The translations under genes and the position numbers were made by a program. A stretch of 64,000 nucleotides of DNA from Pseudomonadota bacterium (GTDB lineage: Bacteria; Pseudomonadota; Gammaproteobacteria; Burkholderiales; Burkholderiaceae_D). The stretch covers positions 31,429-95,428 of the forward strand of contig JAZJZQ010000084.1 of assembly GCA_040389625.1 (NCBI GenBank). The letters are read 5' to 3'. The notes below the pieces were generated by a model. It was not told the DNA's origin. It ran no database searches and worked only from the letters and a program-made list of their open reading frames with translations. Shown piece by piece: positions 22,372-64,000 of this stretch (position 1 is its first letter; each line of letters opens with the position of its first letter).

Positions 22372-23277
22372 TCAGTCCGAGCCGGCCTTGCGCAAGTGCG
22401 TCAATAATTTACCGGCTTCCGGCAAAAGCGCCGGTTCGGATTTAACGCCCAGCCATAGTGTGCGGGAAGCCCAGGCGTCACGCAGCGGAATGGCGCGCAA
22501 TCCGGCGCTCAGCATCTCAGGCCGCACCGCACCGTCTGGCAGCACGCCAATGCCCAAGCCCGCCTCTATCATGCAGAAAATGCCGTCAAAGCTGCTGACC
22601 TGGATGCGCAAGCGGAGCGGCTTGTCGTGAACGAGTGATGCGTCGATCAATCGCTGGAGAAGCGAACTACCCTGGTTAAGGCCAACAAAGTCATAATCAA
22701 GCGCTTCGGCAAAATGCAGTTCGGGCAGGGATGCCAGCGGATGATCCGCACGCATCAGGAGCACCAGCTTGTCTCTGCGGTAGAGAAATTTCTCCAGGCC
22801 ACGGGTCGGCACGTTGTCCGCAAAAATGCCAAGATCGGCTTCGCCGGTGATGACCGCGTTGACGATCTGATCGCTGAGTTTCTCCTCCAGGCCGATGCGT
22901 ATCAACGGTTGCTCGCGCAAGAAGGCGGCAAGATCGTAAGGGAGGAATTGAATAATGGCTGAAGTGTTGGCCCAAATTCTCACGTGGCCGCGCACCCCGA
23001 TGGCGAAGTCCTCCATTTCACCGGCCATCCGATTCACCGTGTCGAGCACGCTGCGAGCGTGCTGCGCCAGTTGCTGGCCTGCCGATGTCAATTCGAGTCC
23101 GCGCGGCATGCGCAGAAACAAGGGGCAATCGACAACACGCTCCAGTTCGGCAATCCGCTTGCTCAGCGCCGATAAAGTCATGTGCGTCTTATCTGTCGCC
23201 TTGGTCAGGCTGCCTGTTTGTGCGACTAGCAGAAAGATGCGCAGCGATTGCAGATCGAAATGGTTGGGGTTGATCAC
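22372..23277 (-). CDS. LysR-family regulator
   Basis: FDLQSLRIF...GSLTKA...LSALSKRIAELE HTH and GHVRIWANTSA; probable GTG start at 23277. Confidence 0.92.
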   Translation of the reverse strand: MINPNHFDLQSLRIFLLVAQTGSLTKATDKTHMTLSALSKRIAELERVVDCPLFLRMPRGLELTSAGQQLAQHARSVLDTVNRMAGEMEDFAIGVRGHVRIWANTSAIIQFLPYDLAAFLREQPLIRIGLEEKLSDQIVNAVITGEADLGIFADNVPTRGLEKFLYRRDKLVLLMRADHPLASLPELHFAEALDYDFVGLNQGSSLLQRLIDASLVHDKPLRLRIQVSSFDGIFCMIEAGLGIGVLPDGAVRPEMLSAGLRAIPLRDAWASRTLWLGVKSEPALLPEAGKLLTHLRKAGSD

Positions 23278-23687
23278 GGCATCAGTCAGAGGAGGGGGGG
23301 CCGAACTGGGCAGTCGGTATTGGCCGAGGTTAGTAGACGGAGTTGGTTTTGTCAAACAATGGCAACAGTTGTTTGGGGGGGGAGGACGCCTCCAACATGA
23401 CGAGCACGCAACTATCGTGGGGCGGGCGCCGTCGAGGAAGCGCTGGTATTCCTGATTGGAAAGGATATTTGAGCATACGGAAATTGTCGGCATCTGTTGG
23501 CCGCCAGTAACCTTATGCGAAACGCTGCCGTATTGGCTACCGGAAATGAACGCTTCTCGCGGGTCATTGGAACGGACGCCAGCATGCAGCAGTCCGCTGC
23601 GCTCGGGCATCTAATGAGCGCGTTCCACTCTTGGTGTCATCTTCTTCCGGCGCCATCCATCCCGACATTCGCCCACCCCACTACGCT

Positions 23688-25298
23688 ATGCATACACTTC
23701 ATTCGATCCGTATTTCCACCCGTCTTGCTACCGGCTTCGCGCTGCTATTGCTTTTGTCGATCGCCGGCATCGCCATATCGCTCTCTGCCGCATGGGAAAA
23801 TGCCGCCGCAAGCAAGAAAATGATGGCGTTGCCGCTTGCGAAGGAAAGGCTGCTCTCCGACTGGGTGAGCTCCCAGGCGGCGGCGATGGTGCGAACGACG
23901 GTGATCGCCCGCAGTGCCGACTTGACGCTAGCGGTGGCGTTCAAAGAGGAGATGGCGGCATCGGTCACGGCGGGGACCGAATTGGTCAAGCGCGTGGAGG
24001 CGTTGCTGGCCTCGGATGAGGAACGGCTGCTGTTCAACGAAATTGTTGCCTTACGCGCCAAATTTCAGACGGCCAAAAAAGAGATCATGCAGCTGCATGC
24101 GCAAGGCAATGGCGTCGAAGCGGCACGGTTTTACGACGCCGTCTTCGCCCCTGCCAGCAAAGCGTACGCCAGCCGGGTACGCGACTTGCTAACCATGCAA
24201 CGTCTGCAGATCGATCAAATGGCAACCGACATCGAACGCGCGAACGTACGCGCCATTAAGGAGACCTTGGTGCTGGCGGCACTGGTGGTGTCGGCGGGGG
24301 TGTTCGGGGCATGGTATCTCGCGCGCAGCATCACCATACCGCTACGGAACGCCGTGCAGGTGGCCGCCAAGGTGGCGGCCGGTGATCTGACTGTCGTCAT
24401 CGATACGCGCGCAAAGGATGAGCTGGGCGACTTGATGCGGGCATTGGCGACCATGTGCTCGTCGTTGGGAGAAATCGTTCAACAGGTACAGACCGGGGCG
24501 GAGGCGATCGCCACGGCGGCCGATGAAATTTCGACAGGAAATTCGGATTTATCCAACCGCACCGAGCAGCAGGCCGGGTCGTTGGAGGAGACCGCCGCCT
24601 CCATCGAGGAATTAACAGCGGCGGTCCGCCAGAATGCCGAGCATGCACAGCACGCGAATGCGCTTGCGGCGGCCGCTTCCGACGTTGCGCGACGTGGAGG
24701 CATCGTGGTGACGCAAGTTGTGGAAACGATGGGGACCATTCATGCGTCGGCGAGGCAGATCGTGGACATCATCGCGGTCATTGACAGCATCGCCTTCCAG
24801 ACCAATATCCTGGCGCTCAATGCCGCCGTCGAGGCGGCCAGGGCGGGGGAGCAAGGGCAAGGGTTCGCCGTGGTGGCGGCCGAGGTGAGAAGTCTTGCTC
24901 AAAAGTCGGCCACCGCGGCGAAGGAAATCAAAACCTTGATCGGCGCCTCGGTCGAGCAGATCAACGCAGGGGCGACGCTGGTCGACCAGGCGGGTGTCAC
25001 TATGGGCGACGTCGTCGGCAGCGTGCAGAACGTGACGGCAATCATGGGCGAGATCCTGGTAGCGAGCAGGGAGCAGAGCGCAGGTATCGATCAGGTCAAC
25101 CGTGCGGTGATCGAGATGGACGAGACCACGCAGCACAATGCGGCGCTGGTGGAGCAGGCTGCGGCGGCCGCGCAGAGTATGCGGGAACAGACCGATACGT
25201 TGGCGAGCCTGGTCAGTACTTTTACCTTGCCCGCAAGGCAGGGAAGCGAAGTTCGATCAGTGAATTCTTTGGTTTTCCTGGCGGGAAAGGCGGGTTGA
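23688..25298 (+). CDS. Methyl-accepting chemotaxis protein (4-helix-bundle sensor)
   Basis: Two TM segments, HAMP (DELGDL) and [30 protein letters not shown] signature. Confidence 0.95.
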
Positions 25299-25373
25299 GG
25301 AAACAGCGATTATCAGGGAATGCCTTTGCTTCTAAGATGCTTTCAGAACAGCATGACTTATGAGGAGACGTTC

Positions 25374-26564
25374 ATGATAAAACCATTGGAAGGCTTGCGC
25401 GTGATCGAGCTGGGCCAGTTGATCGCAGGGCCGTTCGCCGCCAAGATGCTGGCCGAGTTCGGTGCAGAGGTCATCAAGATCGAGCCGCCCGGCACAGGTG
25501 ATCCACTGCGCAAATGGCGCCTGCTGCACGAAGGGACTTCCGTCTGGTGGGCAGCGCAGTCGCGCAACAAGCAATCCGTGACGCTCGACCTGCGCTCGGA
25601 AGAGGGGCAGGAGGTGATCCGTACGCTGGTCCGGGAAAGTGATGTCCTGATCGAAAATTTCCGCCCCGGCACGATGGAAGGATGGGGGCTGGGCTGGGAT
25701 GCGCTGCACGCGCTCAACCCGCGCCTGGTCATGTTGCGGGTGTCGGGCTATGGCCAGGACGGTCCGTATCGCGACCGCCCCGGCTTCGGGGTGGTGGGCG
25801 AGGCGATGGGCGGCTTGCGTCATCTGAGTGGTGAGCCTGGCCGCACGCCGGTGCGGGTCGGCGTCTCCATCGGTGACTCGCTGTCGGCCCTGCATGGCGT
25901 GATCGGCGTCCTGCTGGCGTTGCGCCACCGCGACCAGCATGGTGGCCAAGGCCAGATGATCGATGTGGCCCTGTACGAGTCGGTCTTCAACATGATGGAA
26001 AGCTTGTTGCCGGAATATTCGGTGTTTGGTGCGGTACGTGCGCCGGCCGGCAGCAGCTTGCCGGGCATCGCCCCGACCAATGCCTATCAGTGCGCGGATG
26101 GCAAGTATGCCCTGATTGCAGGCAATGGCGATGGCATATTCCGGCGCTTGATGGACGTGATCGAGCGCCCCGACCTGCGTGACGAGCCTGCGCTGGCCAG
26201 CAACGACGGGCGCGTCCAGCATGTCGCGCGACTCGATGCCGCCATCGGCGCCTGGACCGCGCAGCGCAGCCTGGACGAGACGCTGGCGGCCTTGAATGGC
26301 GCCGGCATTCCGGCGGGCCGCATCTACGACATCGCCGACATCGCGGCCGATCCCCACTACCGGGCCCGCGACATGATCCTCGACGCCGAACTGGACGACG
26401 GCACGCCGGTGCAACTGCCCGGCATCCTGCCCAAACTGAGTGCGACGCCGGGCAGCGTGCGCCGACCGGCGCCGCGGCTGGGCCAGCATACCGACGAGGT
26501 ACTGGCCGGTATCGGTATCGATAGCTCCACCCGCGCGGCATGGCGCCAGCGCGGCATCATCTGA
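25374..26564 (+). CDS. Family III (CaiB/BaiF) CoA-transferase
   Basis: PLEGLRVIELG, AEVIKIEPP, RNKQSVTLDL, ENFRPG, SGYGQDGP and catalytic Asp in SIGDS. Confidence 0.94.
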   Translation: MIKPLEGLRVIELGQLIAGPFAAKMLAEFGAEVIKIEPPGTGDPLRKWRLLHEGTSVWWAAQSRNKQSVTLDLRSEEGQEVIRTLVRESDVLIENFRPGTMEGWGLGWDALHALNPRLVMLRVSGYGQDGPYRDRPGFGVVGEAMGGLRHLSGEPGRTPVRVGVSIGDSLSALHGVIGVLLALRHRDQHGGQGQMIDVALYESVFNMMESLLPEYSVFGAVRAPAGSSLPGIAPTNAYQCADGKYALIAGNGDGIFRRLMDVIERPDLRDEPALASNDGRVQHVARLDAAIGAWTAQRSLDETLAALNGAGIPAGRIYDIADIAADPHYRARDMILDAELDDGTPVQLPGILPKLSATPGSVRRPAPRLGQHTDEVLAGIGIDSSTRAAWRQRGII

Positions 26565-26577
26565 ACAGGAATCCATT

Positions 26578-27531
26578 ATGAGCAAGCAGCGTTTATACAT
26601 ACAGGAAGTGGCCACGCGCGACGGTTTTCAGAACGAGGCGGCCTATGTCGACACCGACGCCAAGATCGCCCTGATCGACCATCTGAGCGGCTGCGGCTAT
26701 GCCAAGATCGAGGTGACGTCGTTTACGTCGCCCAGGGCCATTCCGGCACTGCGCGATGCGGAGGCGGTGATGCACCAGATCCAGCGCCGCGAGGGTGTCA
26801 TCTATACCGTGCTGGTGCCAAACATCCGCGGCGCCGAGCGGGCCTTGTCGTGCAATGTCGACGAGGTCAATCTGGTGATGTCGGTCAGTGAAAGCCATAA
26901 CCGCACCAATTTGCGGATGACACGCGAACAGTCGTTCGCGCAGCTGCGCGAGGTCATCGGCGTCGTACGCACCAGTCCGGTGGCGATCAACGTGTCGCTG
27001 TCGACGGCGATGGGGTGCCCGATGGAAGGCGACATTCCGGCGGCGACCGTGCTGGAGTGGATGCAACGTTTTGCCGACCTCGGCGTCGACGGTGTGACCT
27101 TGTGCGACACCACCGGCATGGCCTATCCGGCGCAAGTGGCCGCCCTCAGTGCAGCGGCCCGTGCGCGCTTCCCCCAGCTTCAGCTGACCCAGCATTTCCA
27201 CAATACGCGCGGCCTCGCACTGGCCAATACGCAGGCAGCGCTGGCCGCCGGTATCGACCGCTTCGACGCGTCGCTCGGCGGTCTCGGTGGTTGTCCTTAC
27301 GCCCCGGGGGCGACCGGCAACGTTTGCACCGAGGAGCTTGTGCACATGCTGGAACTGGAGGGCTATGACACCGGCATCAACCTGGGCGGTATTCTGGCTG
27401 CGGCGGCGCACTTGCCGGAACTGATCGGGCACGATGTGCCCAGCCAGTTGTTGAAAGCGGGAACCCGCCTGAGCTTGCATCCCATGCCGCAGGGCGACGC
27501 CGGCATGCCGGTGCAACAGGCATTCAACTAA
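26578..27531 (+). CDS. HMG-CoA lyase family (DRE-TIM) 3-hydroxyacyl-CoA lyase
   Basis: EVATRDGFQNE, CDTTGMA, HFHNTRG and GGLGGCPYAPGATGNVCTE motifs. Confidence 0.92.
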   Translation: MSKQRLYIQEVATRDGFQNEAAYVDTDAKIALIDHLSGCGYAKIEVTSFTSPRAIPALRDAEAVMHQIQRREGVIYTVLVPNIRGAERALSCNVDEVNLVMSVSESHNRTNLRMTREQSFAQLREVIGVVRTSPVAINVSLSTAMGCPMEGDIPAATVLEWMQRFADLGVDGVTLCDTTGMAYPAQVAALSAAARARFPQLQLTQHFHNTRGLALANTQAALAAGIDRFDASLGGLGGCPYAPGATGNVCTEELVHMLELEGYDTGINLGGILAAAAHLPELIGHDVPSQLLKAGTRLSLHPMPQGDAGMPVQQAFN

Positions 27532-27541
27532 GGGGGACAAG

Positions 27542-27928
27542 ATGGCCTTCATCGATAGTCTGGATCACCTGGTCCTCACTTGCGTGGACCAGGATGCCAC
27601 CTTGCGCTTCTACACGGAGGTGTTGCAGATGCAGCTGGAGACTTTCGGCAACGGCCGCATGGCCTTTCGCTTTGGAAACCAGAAAATCAACCTGCATCAT
27701 CGGGGCAGCGAATTCGAACCGAAGGCGCATCTGCCCGTGCCGGGCGCACTGGATTTGTGTTTCATCGCCGCCGTGCCGCTCGATGCCGTGATCTCGCATC
27801 TGCGCGATTGCCGCTGGCCCATCATCGAGGGACCGGTTGAACGGACCGGCGCCACCGGCAAGATCCGCTCGGTCTATGTGCGTGATCCGGACCTGAACCT
27901 GATCGAGATAGCGGAGCGCATGCCGTAG
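27542..27928 (+). CDS. VOC/glyoxalase family protein (GLOD5/PA0880/STM3117-like)
   Basis: LDHLVLT, FGNQKINLH, EPKA, DLCF and GPVERTGATGKIRSVYVRDPDLNLIE motifs. Confidence 0.9.
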   Translation: MAFIDSLDHLVLTCVDQDATLRFYTEVLQMQLETFGNGRMAFRFGNQKINLHHRGSEFEPKAHLPVPGALDLCFIAAVPLDAVISHLRDCRWPIIEGPVERTGATGKIRSVYVRDPDLNLIEIAERMP

Positions 27929-27977
27929 CAAATCGTGTCGGTCGTGAAATTCATAACAATTTTTGGAGACAAGTCAA

Positions 27978-29300
27978 ATGAACAGCATTGCACAAATTGG
28001 CGAGCCGCCGGTGCCACCGGTCATCGCAGCAAAGCGCAAGAAATGGTGGCAGCAACTTTATATTCAGGTCGTTGCCGCGGTCATCCTGGGCATCTTGCTG
28101 GGCCATTTCTATCCCTCGACGGCGGCGGCGATGAAGCCGCTTGGCGATAATTTCCTCAAGCTCGTCAAATTGATGGTCGCCCCGTTGATTTTCTGCACGG
28201 TGGTGCATGGCATCGCCAGCATGACCGACATCAAGGCCGTCGGGCGTATCGGGCTGAAGTCGCTGATCTATTTTGAAGTGATGACGACCTTTGCGTTGAT
28301 CATCGGCTTGTTGATGGTCAATTTACTCCAACCCGGCAGCGCCATGCACGTCAATCCGGCCACGTTGGATGCCACCGCGATTGAAGGTTTCACCAAGGCG
28401 GCCCATGACCAGACCGTGGTGGGCTTCCTGTCGCACGTTATCCCGAAGACGGTGTTTGGCGCGTTCGCCGAGGGGGACCTGCTGCAGGTGCTGTTCATTT
28501 CCATCATCTTCGCGTTCGGTCTGCAAATGTTGGGCGAGGCGGGCAAACCGATGTTGAAGGTGATCGACGTCGGCGCCCAGACCTTCTTCAACATGGTGCG
28601 CATGGTGATGGTGGTATCGCCCATCGGCGCGTTCGGCGCGATCGCCTTCACGATAGGCCAGTACGGCGTCGGTTCACTGGCCTCGTATGGCAGGCTGCTG
28701 GGCACCTATTACATCACGGCGGCCTTGTTCGTCGTCATCGTGTTGGGCCTGACCTGCCGGCTCGCGGGCTTTAGCCTGCTCAAACTGCTGAAGTATATCC
28801 GCGACGAGTTGCTGATCGTGCTGGGTACGTCCTCTTCCGAATCGGTGCTGCCGCGGATCATGGCGAAACTGGAACGTCTGGGCTGCGACAAATCCGCCGT
28901 AGGCCTGGTGGTTCCGGCCGGATACTCCTTCAACCTCGACGGCAGTTGCATCAACATGACGGTGCTGGCCATTTTCATTGCCCAGGCCACCGATACCTTC
29001 CTCTCGTTCGGACAACAGGTGACGCTGCTGCTGGTGCTCCTGCTGGCCTCCAAGGGCGCGGCCAGCGTCAGCGGCGGTGCGTTCGTCGTGCTGGCGGCCA
29101 CCCTTGGTTCCGTGCCCGGCTTCCCTGTGGCAGGCCTGGTGCTGGTGCTCGGCGTCTATCGCTTCATTTCCGAAGGGGGCGCCATCGTCAACGTCATCGG
29201 CAATACCGTTGCCACCATCGTGATCTCGAAATGGGAAGGCGTGTTGGACGAAGCGACGTTCCGTCGAGAACTCGACAGGGCGCCAGTCGCGGTGGCCTGA
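27978..29300 (+). CDS. dctA: C4-dicarboxylate:cation symporter (DctA family)
   Basis: LYIQV, FLKLVKLMVAPLIF, LGTSSSESVLP and GYSFNLDG motifs. Confidence 0.9.
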   Translation: MNSIAQIGEPPVPPVIAAKRKKWWQQLYIQVVAAVILGILLGHFYPSTAAAMKPLGDNFLKLVKLMVAPLIFCTVVHGIASMTDIKAVGRIGLKSLIYFEVMTTFALIIGLLMVNLLQPGSAMHVNPATLDATAIEGFTKAAHDQTVVGFLSHVIPKTVFGAFAEGDLLQVLFISIIFAFGLQMLGEAGKPMLKVIDVGAQTFFNMVRMVMVVSPIGAFGAIAFTIGQYGVGSLASYGRLLGTYYITAALFVVIVLGLTCRLAGFSLLKLLKYIRDELLIVLGTSSSESVLPRIMAKLERLGCDKSAVGLVVPAGYSFNLDGSCINMTVLAIFIAQATDTFLSFGQQVTLLLVLLLASKGAASVSGGAFVVLAATLGSVPGFPVAGLVLVLGVYRFISEGGAIVNVIGNTVATIVISKWEGVLDEATFRRELDRAPVAVA

Positions 29301-29338
29301 TCGTATTGCATTGTAAATTTTTGAAAGCGTGAACTCCC

Positions 29339-30256
29339 ATGAAAGTCGTATTTCTTGACGCGGGCACCTTGCCCAATCCATTGTCCTTTCCGGCCGACAC
29401 CGTCGACTACGTCGCCTACCCGGCCACCCACGCCACGGAAGTGGGCGAGCGTATCAGCGGAGCTGCCGTGGTCATCACCAATAAGGTGCGCCTGACCGCC
29501 GCGCAGATGCAGGCCGCGCCACAATTGCGCCTGATCGTGGTGGCGGCGGCCGGCACCGACAACATCGACTTGCCCGCCGCCGCTGCACAGGGGATCAATG
29601 TGCATAACGTTCCCGACTACGGATCCGATTCGGTGGCCGAACACGTCATCGCCACGCTGTTTGCCCTGCGGCGTAACTTGATGACCTATGCGGCCGCGGC
29701 GATCGACGGGCGCTGGTCCGCGGCCCCCCAGTTTTGCTGGAACGGTCCGCGTATCCGGGACGTCGGCGGCAGCATGTTCGGCGTCGTTGGCCGGGGCCGT
29801 ATCGGCCAGGCGGCGGCCCGGTTGGCGCAGGGATTGGGGATGAAAGTCGTGTTCGCCCAGACCCCGGGCAAGGCGTGCCGGACCGACGAATTGCCGCTTG
29901 ACGAGCTGATCGGGCGCGCGGACGTGCTGACGCTGCACGTGCCCTTGACCGATGCAACACGGGGATTAATCGATCGCGCCACCTTGGCGCGCATGAAGCC
30001 CGAGGCGGTGCTGATCAACACCGGCAGAGGCGCTTTGGTCGATCCCGTCGCACTGGCTTGGGCGCTGCGCAACGGGGTGATCGCCGGCGCCGCGATCGAT
30101 GTGCTCGAGGTGGAGCCGCCGCCGCCGGATCACCCGCTGCTGGCGGGCGACATCCCGGGGCTGTTGTGCACGCCGCACGTGGCATGGGCCAGCGAGCGCG
30201 CGCAAGCCCGGCTGGCGGCGACCATTATGCAACTGGTCCAGCACGAGCTGCGGTGA
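29339..30256 (+). CDS. D-2-hydroxyacid dehydrogenase, glycerate dehydrogenase/hydroxypyruvate reductase type
   Basis: VITNKV, GTDNID, SVAEH, W..APQFC, GRGRIG, INTGRG and TPHVAWAS, typical of HprA-like enzymes. Confidence 0.85.
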   Translation: MKVVFLDAGTLPNPLSFPADTVDYVAYPATHATEVGERISGAAVVITNKVRLTAAQMQAAPQLRLIVVAAAGTDNIDLPAAAAQGINVHNVPDYGSDSVAEHVIATLFALRRNLMTYAAAAIDGRWSAAPQFCWNGPRIRDVGGSMFGVVGRGRIGQAAARLAQGLGMKVVFAQTPGKACRTDELPLDELIGRADVLTLHVPLTDATRGLIDRATLARMKPEAVLINTGRGALVDPVALAWALRNGVIAGAAIDVLEVEPPPPDHPLLAGDIPGLLCTPHVAWASERAQARLAATIMQLVQHELR

Positions 30257-30276
30257 GTGGCGCGATGGAGGATGCG

Positions 30277-31470
30277 ATGACCAATGCGATGTGCCCCGAC
30301 CGGCAACGGGGCGCCGGACCGCTGCGTGTGCTGGTCGCACCGGACTCGTTCAAAGGCAGCCTGGGGGCGGTGGAGGTCGCCGCACGGATCGCGGCGGGGG
30401 TGCGCAGCGCCGTGCCCGACAGTATCGTGACCGAAGCGCCCATGGCCGATGGTGGCGAGGGCACCGCGCTGGCCGTCGCCACGGCATTGGACGGCGTCTG
30501 GGACACGGTCGCGGCCATTGATGCCAACGGCGTGTTGATCGACGTGCCGTTCGCCGTCTGCAGCAGTGCTCACCTGGGCGCGTTCGCCATTTTTGATGTG
30601 GCCGAGATCGTGGGATTGCATGCGGCCACCAATCCGCCCGGGCTGCGTTCCACCCGCGGCGTAGGTCAGGCCATCCGCGCGATACGGAGCCTGGGGCACA
30701 AGCGCATCGTGCTGGGACTGGGCGGCTCGTCCACCAACGATGGCGGCGCGGGCATGCTGGCCGAGCTGCTTTTCAATTTTGTCGACACGGCCGGGGCGCG
30801 CGTCGTGCCGGTCTTTAACAACCTGGCACGCATCGACGCGGTTGAATTCCGGGATGACAGGCATTGGCTGTCCGAGCTCGAGTTGATGGGATTGACGGAC
30901 GTAGGCAGTCCACTGACCGGTCCGTGCGGGGCCAGCATGGTGTTTGGCGCCCAGAAGGGTTTTGCCGACCTCGAGCAGGCGGACCGGCTGCTGCAGGGGC
31001 TGGCGCAGCGCTGCGACGCGCTCGTCGCCACCCCATGCGCCGACGTCGAGGGGGCGGGTGCTGCCGGCGGCTTGGGATACGGCATATGCCTGCTGGGCGG
31101 AAAATTGTCGTCTGGTGCGCGCTTTGTGCTGGACGCGCTCCACCTGACCGATGGCAACGTCAACTACGACTGGATCATCACCGGCGAGGGGCGTTCGGAC
31201 CGGCAGACGCTGTTGGGCAAGGCGCCCGCGCTGGTCGCGCAGCTGGCAAGAAGCGCCAAGATTCCCGTGACCTTGCTGTCGGGCGCGGTCGATTATGACG
31301 CCGCGCTGGAAGAAGCGTTCGATGGTTGCTTTTCCGTGCAATCGGGCCCTGTGACGCTGGAGTATGCGATGAACCATGCCGCTCCCTTGCTGGAAGCGGC
31401 GAGCCGGCAACTGAGCACACTGTTCGTGCGGACCGGTCTGCGCCAGTGGAGCGACGGGGCCGCGCATTAA
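30277..31470 (+). CDS. glxK: Glycerate kinase (GlxK/GarK family)
   Basis: APDSFKGSL, MADGGEGT, GLGGSSTNDGGAG, FGAQKG, GAGAAGG and TGEGR motifs. Confidence 0.9.
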   Translation: MTNAMCPDRQRGAGPLRVLVAPDSFKGSLGAVEVAARIAAGVRSAVPDSIVTEAPMADGGEGTALAVATALDGVWDTVAAIDANGVLIDVPFAVCSSAHLGAFAIFDVAEIVGLHAATNPPGLRSTRGVGQAIRAIRSLGHKRIVLGLGGSSTNDGGAGMLAELLFNFVDTAGARVVPVFNNLARIDAVEFRDDRHWLSELELMGLTDVGSPLTGPCGASMVFGAQKGFADLEQADRLLQGLAQRCDALVATPCADVEGAGAAGGLGYGICLLGGKLSSGARFVLDALHLTDGNVNYDWIITGEGRSDRQTLLGKAPALVAQLARSAKIPVTLLSGAVDYDAALEEAFDGCFSVQSGPVTLEYAMNHAAPLLEAASRQLSTLFVRTGLRQWSDGAAH

Positions 31471-31540
31471 CACAAAAAGATCATGCACCTGCATGTTTGG
31501 CACTGTTGATAACTGCTATAGACACTAAAAGGAGACTAAT

Positions 31541-32059
31541 ATGTCTGAACCCTGTTTTAATGCCGGCCGTCGCGCCACCCTGGAAACCTTAGGCCTGGGC
31601 GTGGCCACGCTGGCCGCGGTGGGTATCGTCGGTCCGGCGCGGGCCGACGATACGGCCCCGTCATCGCACGGCGCCGTGGTGCTTGACCGCCTGGACCACG
31701 TCGTGCTCACCGTCGCGGACATCGACAAGACTTGCGAATTCTATGCGCGCGCCGTGGGCATGCAGATCCAGACTTTTGGCGCCGGACGGAAAGCGCTGGT
31801 ATTTGGCAGGCAGAAATTCAATCTGCATCAGTTAGGGCATGAGTTCAACCCCAAGGCCAGGCGGCCCACCCCTGGCGCCATCGACCTGTGCCTGATTGCC
31901 GTGACGCCGGTGGAGGCGGTCATCACCCACCTGAAATCCGTTGGTGTGGCGATAGAAGAGGGACCGGTGATGCGCACCGGTGCGATGGGGCCAATCAAAT
32001 CGGTCTATTTCCGCGATCCGGATGACAATCTGATTGAGATTTCCAATTACGTGTCCTGA
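31541..32059 (+). CDS. VOC/glyoxalase protein with twin-arginine (Tat) signal
   Basis: GRRATL, hydrophobic stretch and ARA cleavage site; mature domain paralogous to 27542-27928. Confidence 0.85.
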   Translation: MSEPCFNAGRRATLETLGLGVATLAAVGIVGPARADDTAPSSHGAVVLDRLDHVVLTVADIDKTCEFYARAVGMQIQTFGAGRKALVFGRQKFNLHQLGHEFNPKARRPTPGAIDLCLIAVTPVEAVITHLKSVGVAIEEGPVMRTGAMGPIKSVYFRDPDDNLIEISNYVS

Positions 32060-32207: not shown

Positions 32208-32597
32208 TCAGATGGGCGGGGCCGGCGCGTCGACCAGGCGTTCCGGATCGAGCGCGCGGATGCGCTGTTCGACATAGTAACCGCCAGCTTCCGTATAGCG
32301 CAGGTATGTCCGTCCGCATATTGCGCATTCCACCACCGCACATCGGTTGTAAGGAAAATACCGTGGCGCGATAGGCGCCAGGGTGGACCAGTATTCCGTG
32401 GCCGACGGATGATACTCCGTGTAAGTCGGTTCGGCGTACGGATCGTCCATCAGGGTGCCGATCTGGCGCAGTTGCGATTCGGGAAACGCGGGCGGCACCC
32501 GTTCCCAGCCGGCGAACGGGCAGGCGGCGCAGCCGCACGGTTGCGTGACCGTCGCTGAACGGCGTGCCAGCGCCATGAGCGTATCGAATGTGAGCAT
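32208..32597 (-). CDS. Hypothetical Cys-rich protein (possible metal-binding)
   Basis: CGCAAC, YHPSATEYW, APIAPRYFPYNRC, CAICGR and LRYTEAGGYYVE; protein-like composition; start uncertain. Confidence 0.65.
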   Translation of the reverse strand: MLTFDTLMALARRSATVTQPCGCAACPFAGWERVPPAFPESQLRQIGTLMDDPYAEPTYTEYHPSATEYWSTLAPIAPRYFPYNRCAVVECAICGRTYLRYTEAGGYYVEQRIRALDPERLVDAPAPPI

Positions 32598-32897
32598 AGG
32601 GTTCAATGAGTCGGTGCGATGCAGACCGAATGGGGCACGGCCCGATGGCCGAACAGGAACAGTGTCCTCTAATTTGCCTGGTATATCAAACATCGAATAC
32701 TGAATGTTACATCAATAAAACTGAACCTGGTGGGATGGCTGTCGCGGTAAAGCACCGTCGCGATGTCGCTTGTATGCCGATGGCGCAGGCCGGTGATCGG
32801 CGCGCGGACAGGCGCATTGCGGGGCGATAGACTTGCCTTCCCATCGCTAAATCGAATTAAATGGCTGGATAGAACATAATTCGATAGCGGAGTAGGA

Positions 32898-61352: not shown

Positions 61353-62531
61353 TCAGATCGCGTGCGCTTCGCGCAAGCTGGCGATGGCCTGGTCACCGTA
61401 GCCCAGTTCGCGGAGTATGGCGCCTGTATGCTGCCCCAGCGCCGGCACGGCATCCATCCTGGGCGTGACGCCTTCGGGTATGCCGGGCGGCAGCAGTGCC
61501 GGGACCGGGCCGCCGGCCGTCTCCACCTCGGTCCAGCGCCCGCGCGCCTTCAGTTGCGGATGGGCCCACACGTCGTGCATGTCATTGACCTGGGCGTTGG
61601 CGATGCGAGCCTGTTCCAGGCGCGCCAGCACCTGTTCCGCGGTCAGCCCGGTGAAGGCGGCCAGGATCAACGCCTTGAGCTCGTCGCGCGCGGCGACCCG
61701 GCGCGCATTCGAGCAAAAGCGCTCGTCCCCTGCCAGCTCGGGCGCCAGCAGTACCTGTTCGCAGAACAGCGCCCATTCGCGCTCGTTCTGGATGCCCAGC
61801 ATGACCGACTTGCCGTCGCCGGCCGCGAACGGACCGTAGGGATAGATGGTGGCGTGCGCGGAGGCAGTACGCGGTGGCGGCGCGGCGCCGTCGTAAGCGT
61901 AGTACAGCGGATAGTTCATCCATTCCACCATGCTCTCCAGCATGGACACGTCGATGCGGCAACCCTTGCCAGTGCGGCCGCGCTGCAGCAGCGCGGCCAG
62001 GATGTTGGTGTAGGCGTACATGCCGGCCGCGATGTCGGCGATCGAGCAGCCGGCCTTGGACGGCTCGTCGGGCGTGCCGGTGATGGACAGGAAGCCCGAT
62101 TCGCTCTGGATCAGCAGGTCGTACGCCTTGCGGTCCCGGTAAGGTCCGTCGGCGCCGTAGCCCGAGATGTCGCATACGATCAGGCGCGGATGGCGTTCCT
62201 TGAGCGCTTCGTACGACAGTCCAAGGCGCTCCGCCGCGCCGGGCGCGAGGTTCTGCACCAGCACGTCGGCGCTTTCCAGTAACTGCGCCAGCACGCCGGC
62301 GGCAGCTTGGTGTTTCACGTCCAGCGTCAGGCTCTCCTTGGAACGGTTGGTCCATACGAAGTGCGACGCCAGGCCGTTCACGCGGCTGTCATAGGCGCGC
62401 GCGAAGTCGCCCACGCCTGGCCGCTCGACCTTGATCACCCGCGCCCCCAAATCCGCCAGCTGGCGGGTGCAGAAGGGCGCGGCGATCGCGTGTTCCAGCG
62501 TGACGACGGTAATGCCATCGAGTGGTCGCAT
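61353..62531 (-). CDS. ict: Family III CoA-transferase, itaconate CoA-transferase-like
   Basis: RPLDGITVVTLEHAIAAPFCTRQLADLGARVIK...FVWTNRSKESLTLD resembles Pseudomonas Ict; next to an Ich-like gene. Confidence 0.7.
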   Translation of the reverse strand: MRPLDGITVVTLEHAIAAPFCTRQLADLGARVIKVERPGVGDFARAYDSRVNGLASHFVWTNRSKESLTLDVKHQAAAGVLAQLLESADVLVQNLAPGAAERLGLSYEALKERHPRLIVCDISGYGADGPYRDRKAYDLLIQSESGFLSITGTPDEPSKAGCSIADIAAGMYAYTNILAALLQRGRTGKGCRIDVSMLESMVEWMNYPLYYAYDGAAPPPRTASAHATIYPYGPFAAGDGKSVMLGIQNEREWALFCEQVLLAPELAGDERFCSNARRVAARDELKALILAAFTGLTAEQVLARLEQARIANAQVNDMHDVWAHPQLKARGRWTEVETAGGPVPALLPPGIPEGVTPRMDAVPALGQHTGAILRELGYGDQAIASLREAHAI

Positions 62532-62541
62532 GGTGGCCTCT

Positions 62542-63699
62542 TCAGAACGAGCGTGGCAGGCCAAGCACGTGTTCCGCCACGTGCGCCAGGATCAGGTTGG
62601 TCGAAATCGGCGCCACCTGGTACAAGCGCGTCTCGCGGAACTTGCGCTCGACGTCGTACTCGGCGGCAAAGCCGAAGCCGCCATGGAATTGCAGGCAGGC
62701 GTTGGCTGCCTCCCACGAGGCTTCCGCCGCCAGCATCTTGGCCATGTTGGCTTCCGCACCGCAGGGCTGATGCGCGTCGAACTTCGCGCACGCCTTGAAG
62801 CGCATCAGGTTGGCCGCCTCGACATTGATGAAGGCGCGGGCGATGGGGAACTGCACGCCCTGGTTCTGGCCGATCGGGCGGCCGAACACTTCGCGCTCCT
62901 TCACATACTTGCTGACCTTGTCGATGAACCAGTAGCCGTCGCCGATACATTCGGCCGCGATCAGGGTGCGTTCGGCGTTCAGGCCATCGAGGATGTACTT
63001 GAAGCCTTTGCCCTCCTGGCCGATCAGGTTCTCGGCCGGGATTTCCAGGTTCTCGAAGAACAGTTCATTGGTTTCGTGGTTGACCATGTTGGCGATGGGC
63101 TGCACCACCAGGCCCTTGCCGATCGCCTCGCGCAGGTCGACCACGAAGATGGACATGCCTTCGGACTTCCTGGTGACCTCGGCCAGCGGCGTGGTGCGCG
63201 CCAGCAGTATCATCAGGTCCGAATGCTGTACCCGGGAGATCCACACCTTCTGGCCGTTGATCACGTAGCGGTCGCCCTTCTTGACGGCCGTGGTCTTGAT
63301 CTTGGTGGTGTCGGTGCCGGTGGTGGGTTCGGTCACGGCCATCGATTGCAGGCGCAATTCGCCGCTGGCGATCTTGGGCAGGTACAAGCGCTTTTGCGCT
63401 TCCGAGCCATGGCGCAGCAGGGTGCCCATGTTGTACATCTGGCCGTGGCAGGCGCCGGAGTTGCCGCCGGAGCGGTTGATCTCTTCCATGATCACGGACG
63501 CTTCGGTCAGGCCGAGTCCTGAACCGCCGTATTCCTGGGGGATCAGGGCGGCCAGCCAGCCCGCCCGGGTCAGCGCGTCCACGAATTTTTCGGGGTAGCC
63601 GCGCTGTTCGTCGACCTTGCGGAAGTATTCGGCCGGGAATTCGGCGCATAGGTCGCGGACGGCGTCGCGGATGTCCTGGAAATCGTTCTGGATGGTCAT
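62542..63699 (-). CDS. Acyl-CoA dehydrogenase (methylsuccinyl-CoA dehydrogenase-like of itaconate operons)
   Basis: HGQMYNM, TEPTTGTDTT, GQKVWISR and ERKFRETRLYQVAPISTN motifs. Confidence 0.88.
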   Translation of the reverse strand: MTIQNDFQDIRDAVRDLCAEFPAEYFRKVDEQRGYPEKFVDALTRAGWLAALIPQEYGGSGLGLTEASVIMEEINRSGGNSGACHGQMYNMGTLLRHGSEAQKRLYLPKIASGELRLQSMAVTEPTTGTDTTKIKTTAVKKGDRYVINGQKVWISRVQHSDLMILLARTTPLAEVTRKSEGMSIFVVDLREAIGKGLVVQPIANMVNHETNELFFENLEIPAENLIGQEGKGFKYILDGLNAERTLIAAECIGDGYWFIDKVSKYVKEREVFGRPIGQNQGVQFPIARAFINVEAANLMRFKACAKFDAHQPCGAEANMAKMLAAEASWEAANACLQFHGGFGFAAEYDVERKFRETRLYQVAPISTNLILAHVAEHVLGLPRSF

Positions 63700-63703
63700 G
63701 CTC

Positions 63704-64000
63704 TTACTCCTCGTTGTTTGCTTTATTTAAGATGGCTTCGGCGCGCATACTCAGGTGGCCTTGCTCGTTCCTGGCCCACAGGCTGACTGTCTTGCCGTCG
63801 GCGTGCACGCGCCCGCAGACCTGGAACGGCTTGTCGTGGAACAGCGGCTGCATGGCGCGGAAGGAATATTCGGCCACTTCGGCGGCCGGCCAATTGCGGT
63901 GCAGCAGGTCCAGCAGCAGCGTGGCGACCAGGGGGCCGTGCACCACCAGGCCCGGATAGCCCTCCACCTGCGTCGCATAAGGCAGGTCGTAGTGGATGCG
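63704..64000 (-). CDS. ich: MaoC/hot-dog hydratase, itaconyl-CoA hydratase-like (5' end outside the window)
   Basis: RIHYDLPYATQVEGYPGLVVHGPL and YSFRAMQPLF motifs; frame open to the window edge. Confidence 0.65.
   Translation of the reverse strand, partial: RIHYDLPYATQVEGYPGLVVHGPLVATLLLDLLHRNWPAAEVAEYSFRAMQPLFHDKPFQVCGRVHADGKTVSLWARNEQGHLSMRAEAILNKANNEE

Follow-up and report, generated by a model that had tools for sequence, protein, structure and literature searches.

Which compound does a bacterium break down with a cluster that joins a CoA-transferase, a retro-Claisen lyase, putative lactonases, a dicarboxylate carrier, a hydroxyacid dehydrogenase and a glycerate kinase? Such a cluster occupies positions 22372-32059 of the window, the whole 64,000-nucleotide stretch of contig JAZJZQ010000084.1 (C84 below) analysed here, from a Pseudomonadota bacterium of the Burkholderiales. 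Its gene content and its recurrence in other genomes indicate a real, conserved and apparently undescribed catabolic module. We consider it likely that the substrate forms a lactone and yields hydroxypyruvate. The best single candidate, which we favour with moderate confidence on the strength of sequence and gene context, is itatartarate with its lactone 2-hydroxyparaconate (2-HP), and this conserved carboxylate-catabolic operon would then, somewhat more probably than otherwise, break down (S)-2-HP and itatartarate to acetyl-CoA and glycerate.

Fungi have been proposed to use 2-HP against competitors that degrade itaconate, and the compound has also been put forward as an antimicrobial candidate (PMC9875883; PMC11626831; here and below, papers are cited for those parts of them that were available). 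Natural sources include Aspergillus terreus (PMC11278011) and also Ustilaginaceae, and 2-HP and itatartarate are now producible at ~85% purity (PMC11626831). In Pseudomonas aeruginosa, PA0880 is needed for the removal of (S)-2-HP, which is converted to itatartarate in vivo (PMC9875883), in agreement with the statement in the first-pass annotation that a protein of this kind opens the lactone. Itatartarate accumulates after PA0880 has acted, no strain, P. putida KT2440 included, grew on a 2-HP/itatartarate mix, and the authors suspect that itatartarate ends up as a CoA ester, itatartaryl-CoA, for which there is no further breakdown, a dead end (PMC9875883). We lean slightly towards the view that the present cluster is the missing assimilatory itatartarate/2-HP pathway, a mirror-handed counterpart of itaconate degradation, with a new itatartaryl-CoA lyase and with GLOD5-type proteins of the vicinal oxygen chelate (VOC) family as lactonases that would also repair a self-lactonising CoA ester.

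Gene content and recurrence of the cluster

Gene families were assigned by Pfam and NCBIfam profiles, which backed all nine genes of the first-pass annotation, each on its strand and in its place. On the + strand, a family III (CaiB/BaiF) CoA-transferase (25374-26564; PF02515, E 6.6e-133), predicted to be a succinyl-CoA:itatartarate CoA-transferase, is followed by a DRE-TIM retro-Claisen lyase resembling HMG-CoA lyase, where HMG is 3-hydroxy-3-methylglutaryl (26578-27531; HMGL-like, PRK05692 passed), a cytoplasmic VOC protein of the GLOD5/STM3117/PA0880 type (27542-27928; PF00903) and predicted 2-HP lactonase, a DctA-type dicarboxylate symporter (27978-29300; PRK01663 passed) with a predicted role in itatartarate uptake, a GHRC-like (HprA-type) D-2-hydroxyacid dehydrogenase (29339-30256), predicted to reduce hydroxypyruvate, a class I glycerate kinase (30277-31470; TIGR00045 passed) and a second VOC protein with a twin-arginine (Tat) leader (31541-32059), a predicted periplasmic lactonase. 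A methyl-accepting chemotaxis protein (MCP) with a 4HB sensor (23688-25298, + strand; Pfam MCPsignal, HAMP and 4HB_MCP_1) precedes the transferase. The eight + strand genes are separated by 10-75 bp; with the likely start of the kinase at 30277, the gap between reductase and kinase is 20 bp. Divergent from them is a LysR-type regulator (22372-23277, - strand; Pfam HTH_1 and LysR_substrate), predicted to be a substrate-responsive activator, whose likely start is the GTG at 23277, giving 301 aa rather than the 412-aa open reading frame. The CoA-transferase keeps Asp168, reaches no NCBIfam equivalog cut-off and is 29% identical to Ict of L221 (L numbers denote homologous loci and C numbers contigs of the window's genome, G000). 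No model for a Chloroflexus-type (R)-citramalate CoA-transferase or lyase was among the NCBIfam matches listed.

The lyase was used to scan genomes, the best 80 of 240 relatives being kept from the species-genome scan. Also included were all non-self matches from samples of 301 genomes at phylum level and 401 at order level, the 27 top new places of 64 in a family sample of 251 genomes and, out of 200 genomes from the family to which the window belongs, 13 of the 28 non-self places (the 28 include one unpublished genome outside the fetched set). Removal of two duplicates left 193 loci, some of which end at contig ends, so that neighbours can be cut off; loci with at least 72% lyase identity (82 in the final count) are termed close.

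Among the 82 close loci, a transferase is nearby in 71, a VOC gene in 74, a GHRC-type reductase in 55 and a glycerate kinase in 5. At 167 of the 193 loci the transferase lies no more than 5 kb from the lyase, and over the whole set a reductase and/or glycerate kinase adjoins the lyase in 58 of the 104 VOC-bearing loci vs 1 of the 89 without VOC (58 loci thus combine VOC with a reductase or kinase, 46 have only the VOC, 1 has only a reductase or kinase, and 88 have none of these). With the first 155 loci limited to 5 kb on both sides, the corresponding counts were 51, 20, 1 and 55. The raw counts thus favour the expectation of the first-pass annotation that the glycerate genes are conserved together with lyase and VOC. 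Most of 80 close loci have a LysR homologue (56-76% identity) beside the lyase, and a carboxylate transporter is close to the lyase in 71 of 84 (a major facilitator superfamily (MFS) type in 50, DctA in 15, a second MFS type in 6, DctP in 4 and TctC in 4). In a second lyase clade (58-66% identity), VOC genes occur in 23 of 27 newly fetched loci, most loci have a TctC receptor, and L242 and L263 show the order lyase-VOC-TctC-reductase-class II kinase.

The conserved core is therefore the family III CoA-transferase, the lyase, the VOC protein, a carboxylate transporter and LysR, and because the arrangement recurs in other genomes it is not due to chance. It is found in Burkholderia, Paraburkholderia, Caballeronia, Cupriavidus, Ralstonia and Massilia and in the second Burkholderiales clade; among the environmental carriers are Massilia niastensis DSM 21313 (L032) and Paraburkholderia madseniana RP11 (L004). 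The distribution is patchy: seven other genomes of the window's genus gave no match to the unit. The MCP, to which the first-pass annotation had given a sensing role, draws no support from conservation, as none of the 80 close loci has an MCP between LysR and transferase; it is specific to the window and outside the core. MCPs unrelated to it come after the transporter in L136 and L142.

Several side observations concern the cluster and its relatives. At 17 of the 83 close loci, all from Burkholderia (L030:11516-12463 among them), the VOC gene is followed by an alpha/beta hydrolase gene (BD-FAE/Abhydrolase_3), which may encode an esterase or a further lactonase. A Caballeronia group (L043, L053, L056, L059, L067, L068, L070, L072 and L076) has lyase and VOC only, without transferase or reductase, next to a divergent thioesterase gene and an MFS gene; in three such genomes only 58-60% transferase matches occur elsewhere. 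The LysR-MCP intergenic region holds a T-N11-A inverted repeat (23449-23461), a possible LysR box. A promoter scan found 0 sigma-70 sites vs 2.7 expected, and terminators were not in excess. Right after the operon, on the - strand, lies a 161-aa Cys-rich open reading frame (32208-32693) that matches nothing in Pfam or NCBIfam. Apart from the possible source, the public DNA datasets with at least half of the sampled words of positions 25374-32059 are metagenomes of soil (one) and groundwater (three), from three studies; no RNA dataset was among those listed. A metagenome scan with the glycerate kinase was uninformative, giving 8 distant loci (30-34% identity), none adjoining the other queried genes. 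A Pseudomonadales sample gave 15 matches, 8 of which were left unwidened.

The glycerate branch and the product of cleavage

The dehydrogenase has PRK06487 as its best NCBIfam match (328 bits, under the 448 cut-off) and 5TX7 as its best PDB match (E 5.5e-62). 5TX7 represents GHRC, whose sole characterised enzyme reduces hydroxypyruvate and glyoxylate (PMC6303947). The Asn-Lys motif (N48-K49; Lys52 in 5TX7) is kept in 56 of 56 operon copies of the reductase, and W283 of the window's enzyme aligns with GHRC Trp288.

The reductase gene has been placed in six or more ways around the core: upstream of and divergent from the transferase, between VOC and MFS genes, after DctA, after LysR, co-directional upstream, and convergent after TctC. 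Its copies form three supported lineages, two of which are only 40-49% identical to that of the window. The kinases belong to two unrelated classes: besides the window, L040, L054 (where a pyruvate kinase stands beside it), L055, L075 and the plasmid locus L231 have one of class I, whereas those of L032, L132, L242, L263 and L264 are of the class II (MOFRL) type. In L264, lyase and VOC lead straight into gcl (carboligase), hyi (hydroxypyruvate isomerase), a tsar gene (tartronate-semialdehyde-reductase-like) and a class II kinase. Non-homologous stand-ins recur, namely class II glycerate kinase, hydroxypyruvate isomerase and, as described below, SMP-30 lactonase.

Hydroxypyruvate as product fits all of these layouts, whereas glyoxylate fits L264 alone. 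The latter would arise if the substrate were (R)-malyl-CoA, cleaved to acetyl-CoA and glyoxylate, with the GHRC enzyme reducing glyoxylate, as the family can (PMC6303947). The geometry would be right by the Cahn-Ingold-Prelog (CIP) calculation given below, and DctA carries malate; a lactonase is nevertheless superfluous for malate, a tartrate/D-malate dehydrogenase is encoded elsewhere in the genome (C320), and the carboligase that would give the glycerate kinase a glyoxylate-derived substrate stands beside L264 only. We regard this reading as very improbable.

The same genome encodes another GHRC (C346) and class II kinases, and a leucine-type lyase with leucine genes lies at C84:30522, just outside the window (38% identity to the cluster lyase). 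The reductase, kinase and lyase of the cluster are therefore extra copies. The genome also holds a complete tartrate-type operon (G000 C320:12570-17882; tartrate dehydrogenase, DctA, class II glycerate kinase and pyruvate kinase).

For a retro-Claisen enzyme to release acetyl-CoA plus hydroxypyruvate, its substrate must be 2-(hydroxymethyl)malyl-CoA, or else hydroxycitryl-CoA, in which case CO2 has to be lost afterwards. The second route would start from hydroxycitrate or its lactone (Garcinia/Hibiscus acid, which is 2-HP plus one carboxyl): hydroxycitryl-CoA would give acetyl-CoA and oxaloglycolate, and the latter, on losing CO2, hydroxypyruvate. The enzymes required would be the same in either case, from lactonase and transferase to lyase, reductase and kinase. 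No decarboxylase is conserved, however, and the open form, a tricarboxylate, is a poor fit to DctA together with a periplasmic lactonase (window and L025). The TctC receptors of 4 of 84 close loci and of most second-clade loci speak for hydroxycitrate, as does the tartrate dehydrogenase (TIGR02089 passed) upstream of the unit in L132, from a family that handles oxaloglycolate; either C3 configuration, moreover, can be accommodated by the lyase geometry if two binding modes are allowed for. On the other side, the only measured lactone activity in the VOC family is on 2-HP, the link to itaconate genes would be unexpected and yet is seen, and only nutrition and physiology work appeared among the literature matches listed on bacterial hydroxycitrate degradation. 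Hydroxycitrate is in our judgement an unlikely substrate.

Tartrate, apionate, threonate, mevalonate, isocitric lactone and paraconate were set aside on chemical grounds, as none gives acetyl-CoA and hydroxypyruvate.

Lyase handedness and lactone opening

The lyase, named HMG-CoA lyase by all sources, aligns gap-free to the human enzyme. R14, D15, T178, H206, H208, C239 and N248 are invariant in 194 lyase rows, R14 and D15, H206 and H208, and C239 being what we take to be the DRE-TIM Arg-Asp, the two metal His and the signature-loop Cys. At the human positions V125, F127, A129, F134, R165, Y167 and G203, which presumably line the substrate pocket, the window's enzyme has N98, V100, S102, H107, N138, S140 and C176. 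The catalytic residues are thus kept, and the pocket appears remodelled to polar or smaller residues.

An ordinary catabolic unit for 3-hydroxy-3-methylglutarate, as the annotated names and the passed PRK05692 model imply, would agree with the presence of human succinate-HMG CoA-transferase among the PDB matches of the transferase (E 2e-59). Against it stand V, N and S in place of human F127, R165 and Y167, in the window's lyase and nearly all relatives, and the conventional lyase with leucine genes just outside the window; no acetoacetate-using gene is conserved, and lactonase, reductase and kinase would be left unexplained. We consider such a unit extremely improbable.

The relation of the lyase to its wider subfamily bears on a different alternative, a system of the (R)-citramalate type, comparable to that of Chloroflexus and acting on 2-substituted malates in general (citramalate, 2-isopropylmalate, homocitrate), in which the VOC protein would detoxify lactones and the glycerate genes would serve another end. 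N98, S102, H107 and N138 are common to the whole subfamily, transferase-lyase pairs often occur with no VOC gene and no glycerate gene (both are missing at 88 of 193 loci), and the CIP geometry is the same. In four VOC-less pairs, LeuCD-like hydratases follow the lyase (L161:571-2639, L236:7961-10036, L272:8958-11020 and L280:5945-7983), which likely reflects a citraconate or 2-alkylmaleate route via an (R)-type 2-alkylmalate. Because the pocket is shared with such relatives, the subfamily looks like a lyase family for 2-substituted malyl-CoAs, with context marking the substrate. Here, pyruvate, 2-oxoisovalerate and 2-oxoglutarate need no GHRC reductase or glycerate kinase, and yet the glycerate genes have been retained in a variety of layouts and with kinases of two unrelated classes; no gamma-lactone arises from citramalate, and T77 is present in 105 of 105 VOC-linked lyases vs 44 of 89 others. 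Eight positions are specific to the close clade, none of them shared with VOC-bearing distant lyases. A general citramalate-type role for this cluster seems rather unlikely.

Handedness offers a further argument, one added beyond the first-pass annotation. CitE-type lyases cleave (S)-citramalyl-CoA and (R)-HMG-CoA, and the TIM-barrel HMG-CoA lyases of P. aeruginosa (PA2011) and human cleave (S)-HMG-CoA (PMC6689899). By CIP calculation, (S)-HMG-CoA, (R)-citramalyl-CoA and (S)-itatartaryl-CoA share one geometry. Since fungal 2-HP is (S) (PMC9875883), an HMG-CoA-lyase-type enzyme is the kind needed and a CitE lyase would have the wrong hand, which fits the reported itatartarate dead end. The argument would be compatible with hydroxycitrate too.

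Both VOC proteins belong to the family of PA0880, as the first-pass annotation had proposed. The PDB matches of the first include STM3117 (E 5e-41) and human GLOD5 (E 6e-39), and it is 58-67% identical to eight VOC proteins at the PA0880 position, that is, between mcd and mmgE in ich-mcd-VOC-mmgE-ict-ccl-dctP clusters. The second is 61-66% identical to VOC proteins at that position and 58% identical to the first, which falls in a separate, well-supported clade mixing lyase-linked, itaconate-end and stand-alone proteins. An alignment of 53 rows has 36 invariant residues, including H9, H52 and E122. Read by eye, the second VOC has a twin-arginine motif, a hydrophobic stretch and a cleavage site, kept in relatives, and 11 of 14 relatives fetched from the match list show the RR and hydrophobic leader. 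The sole VOC of L025, which also has DctA and the reductase, is the Tat-leader form, with a database start that leaves the leader out. SMP-30/gluconolactonase genes occur in 5 of 83 close loci and in L230 and L231; they stand alongside a VOC gene in L009, L021, L044, L055 and L230 and without one in L047 and L231 (within the 8 kb fetched). We predict that both VOC proteins are 2-HP lactonases, and GLOD5-type proteins more widely may open lactones derived from itaconate; Aspergillus niger strains that produce itaconate show strong induction of a GLOD5 homologue (PMC6320622). The lactonase role is still termed proposed in PMC12290011, and glyoxalase activity is reported for STM3117 (PMC7397319). 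An acyl-CoA epimerase role for the VOC protein was dropped, given the Tat export of one copy and the ability of an SMP-30 lactonase to take its place.

In the pathway that we propose for itatartarate, the Tat-exported VOC protein would open (S)-2-HP in the periplasm and DctA would import the dicarboxylate itatartarate; a periplasmic lactonase beside a dicarboxylate carrier favours a diacid as the open form. Running in the degradative direction, the CoA-transferase would convert succinyl-CoA and itatartarate to itatartaryl-CoA, the lyase would cleave (S)-itatartaryl-CoA to acetyl-CoA and hydroxypyruvate, and the reductase and kinase would carry hydroxypyruvate via glycerate to phosphoglycerate. 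The cytoplasmic VOC protein would open lactone that enters intact and, on chemical grounds, may also salvage lactone that forms anew through attack of the CH2OH group on the thioester within itatartaryl-CoA. As a gamma-hydroxy thioester this intermediate would tend to cyclise to the toxic lactone, which would explain why the cytoplasmic VOC gene hugs the lyase gene. With the checkable premises of the first-pass annotation upheld and the glycerate genes co-conserved, context supports well a lactone-forming substrate that yields hydroxypyruvate. Itatartarate itself, the molecule named by the first-pass annotation, is a less secure assignment, since hydroxycitrate lactone would give the same downstream genes.

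Several observations weigh against this pathway: (i) The kinship-corrected independent-pairs test of co-occurrence is not significant (7 pairs, a mean of 2.4 in the same direction and 0 in the opposite, median p 0.5), nor was an earlier run (p 0.25), and most positive loci fall in one clade. (ii) Of the VOC-bearing loci, 46 of 104 have no glycerate gene nearby; of five genomes checked among those without the reductase at the locus, two had no match anywhere at E 1e-40 (genome completeness not given). The co-conservation expected by the first-pass annotation therefore stands in the raw counts and not after correction. (iii) Trp135, diagnostic of GHRC and described as absolutely conserved (PMC6303947), is Phe (F132) in 56 of 56 operon copies; the reductase probably works like GHRC and is a possible strict member only, its PRK06487 score too lying below the cut-off. 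(iv) The remodelled pocket is common to VOC-less relatives, among them the pairs followed by LeuCD-like hydratases. (v) The lactonase activity of PA0880 is known from cells rather than from purified enzyme (PMC9875883). (vi) The VOC family is generic: in one pseudomonad family, 88 of the 251 genomes have it, and of 20 VOC loci that were widened, 14 have no itaconate or lyase neighbour; orthology to PA0880, and to Ustilago Rdo1, rests on gene order. (vii) Hydroxycitrate lactone would also yield hydroxypyruvate.

Itaconate context and known systems

An itaconate/methylsuccinate-type cluster lies 29 kb away on the - strand (61353-63699), with an Mcd-like and then an Ict-like gene, 82% and 68% identical to Mcd and Ict of L221, as the first-pass annotation had surmised for 61-64 kb. 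Past the window end follow Ich-like (52%) and CitE-like (43%) genes, and the whole (61353-64000 continued by G000 C84:95132-98534) reads etfB-etfA-citE-ich-mcd-ict. In this genome, which is 82% complete, nothing matches MmgE. Another ict/ich/citE-like cluster, which includes tripartite ATP-independent periplasmic (TRAP) transporter genes, is at C84:267-5900. The set of Ict, Ich and CitE is incomplete at 22372-32059, where neither Ich nor CitE was found, and partly present in the 61-64 kb cluster. Itaconate-type genes also adjoin lyase homologues in L101, L125, L128, L129 and L130 and, more weakly, in L054, L075, L135, L136, L139 and L142. In L135, L136, L139 and L142, an itaconyl-CoA-hydratase-like gene (44-45% identical to the Ich of L221) comes after a transferase-lyase-VOC-TctC unit and in the same orientation, with an MCP in between in two of them. 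We treat the itaconate-type genes at 61-64 kb and beside lyase homologues as supportive context only.

The chemistry of CoA-transferase plus retro-Claisen lyase is of a known type; the pathway itself, a candidate for an undescribed one in the first-pass annotation, was not found in the literature searched, coverage of which was partial. No published work joining hydroxyparaconate or itatartarate with hydroxypyruvate and glycerate was found in a search that left subscription journals and older work largely outside, and this gene combination in Burkholderia was likewise absent from the literature searched. Among the GLOD5 and lactonase matches listed, titles and the starts of abstracts showed no such pathway, the operon was not seen in the available part of PMC13491972, and PP_3394 appears in the literature searched only in a lysine transporter context. 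If the pathway is correct, a full degradation route widespread in soil Burkholderiales would be the next move in a fungal-bacterial arms race, in which a fungal anti-resistance metabolite becomes food for soil and water Burkholderiales, beyond detoxification only, and the cluster would show which bacteria should be insensitive. A large group of so-called HMG-CoA lyases would be re-annotated, itatartaryl-CoA lyase being a new activity, GLOD5-type proteins would gain a testable function, and itaconate-derivative biotechnology would gain enzymes and a LysR sensor.

The closest comparison is with the itaconate/methylsuccinate cluster PA0878-0886 of P. aeruginosa (Ich, Mcd, RdoPA, MmgE, Ict, Ccl and TRAP; PMC9875883, PMC12290011), which shares a family III CoA-transferase, a retro-Claisen lyase, a VOC protein of the same family and a carboxylate transporter. 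Its pathway ends at itatartarate. The present cluster lacks Ich, Mcd and MmgE, gains a reductase and a glycerate kinase, and has a lyase of the HMG-CoA-lyase rather than the CitE type, hence of opposite handedness. Ustilago Rdo1, reportedly 59.7% identical to PA0880, is a proposed fungal lactonase (PMC9875883); Cyp3 and Rdo1, which serve the formation of 2-HP and itatartarate, are fungal and biosynthetic, unlike the genes described here.

Like the (S)-HMG-CoA lyases (human HMGCL, P. aeruginosa PA2011, and those of Brucella and Bacillus), the cluster lyase keeps the catalytic and metal residues in a gap-free alignment to the human chain, but its pocket positions are polar or smaller and its operon context is unrelated to leucine catabolism. 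Chloroflexus aurantiacus has a succinyl-CoA:(R)-citramalate CoA-transferase and an (R)-citramalyl-CoA lyase, and the present pair resembles these in joining an adjacent family III transferase and HMG-CoA-lyase-like enzyme for a 2-substituted malate of the same handedness; the Chloroflexus pair, by contrast, is not known to include a lactonase, reductase or kinase, and its product is pyruvate. The exit via glycerate and phosphoglycerate is that of tartrate use (ttuC, ttuD, ttuE) and of the HprA-glycerate kinase module, with further parallels to tartrate systems in the added pyruvate kinase of L054 and in the tartrate dehydrogenase and class II kinase of L132. The entries differ: tartrate is oxidised, whereas the present cluster would use CoA activation and carbon-carbon cleavage.

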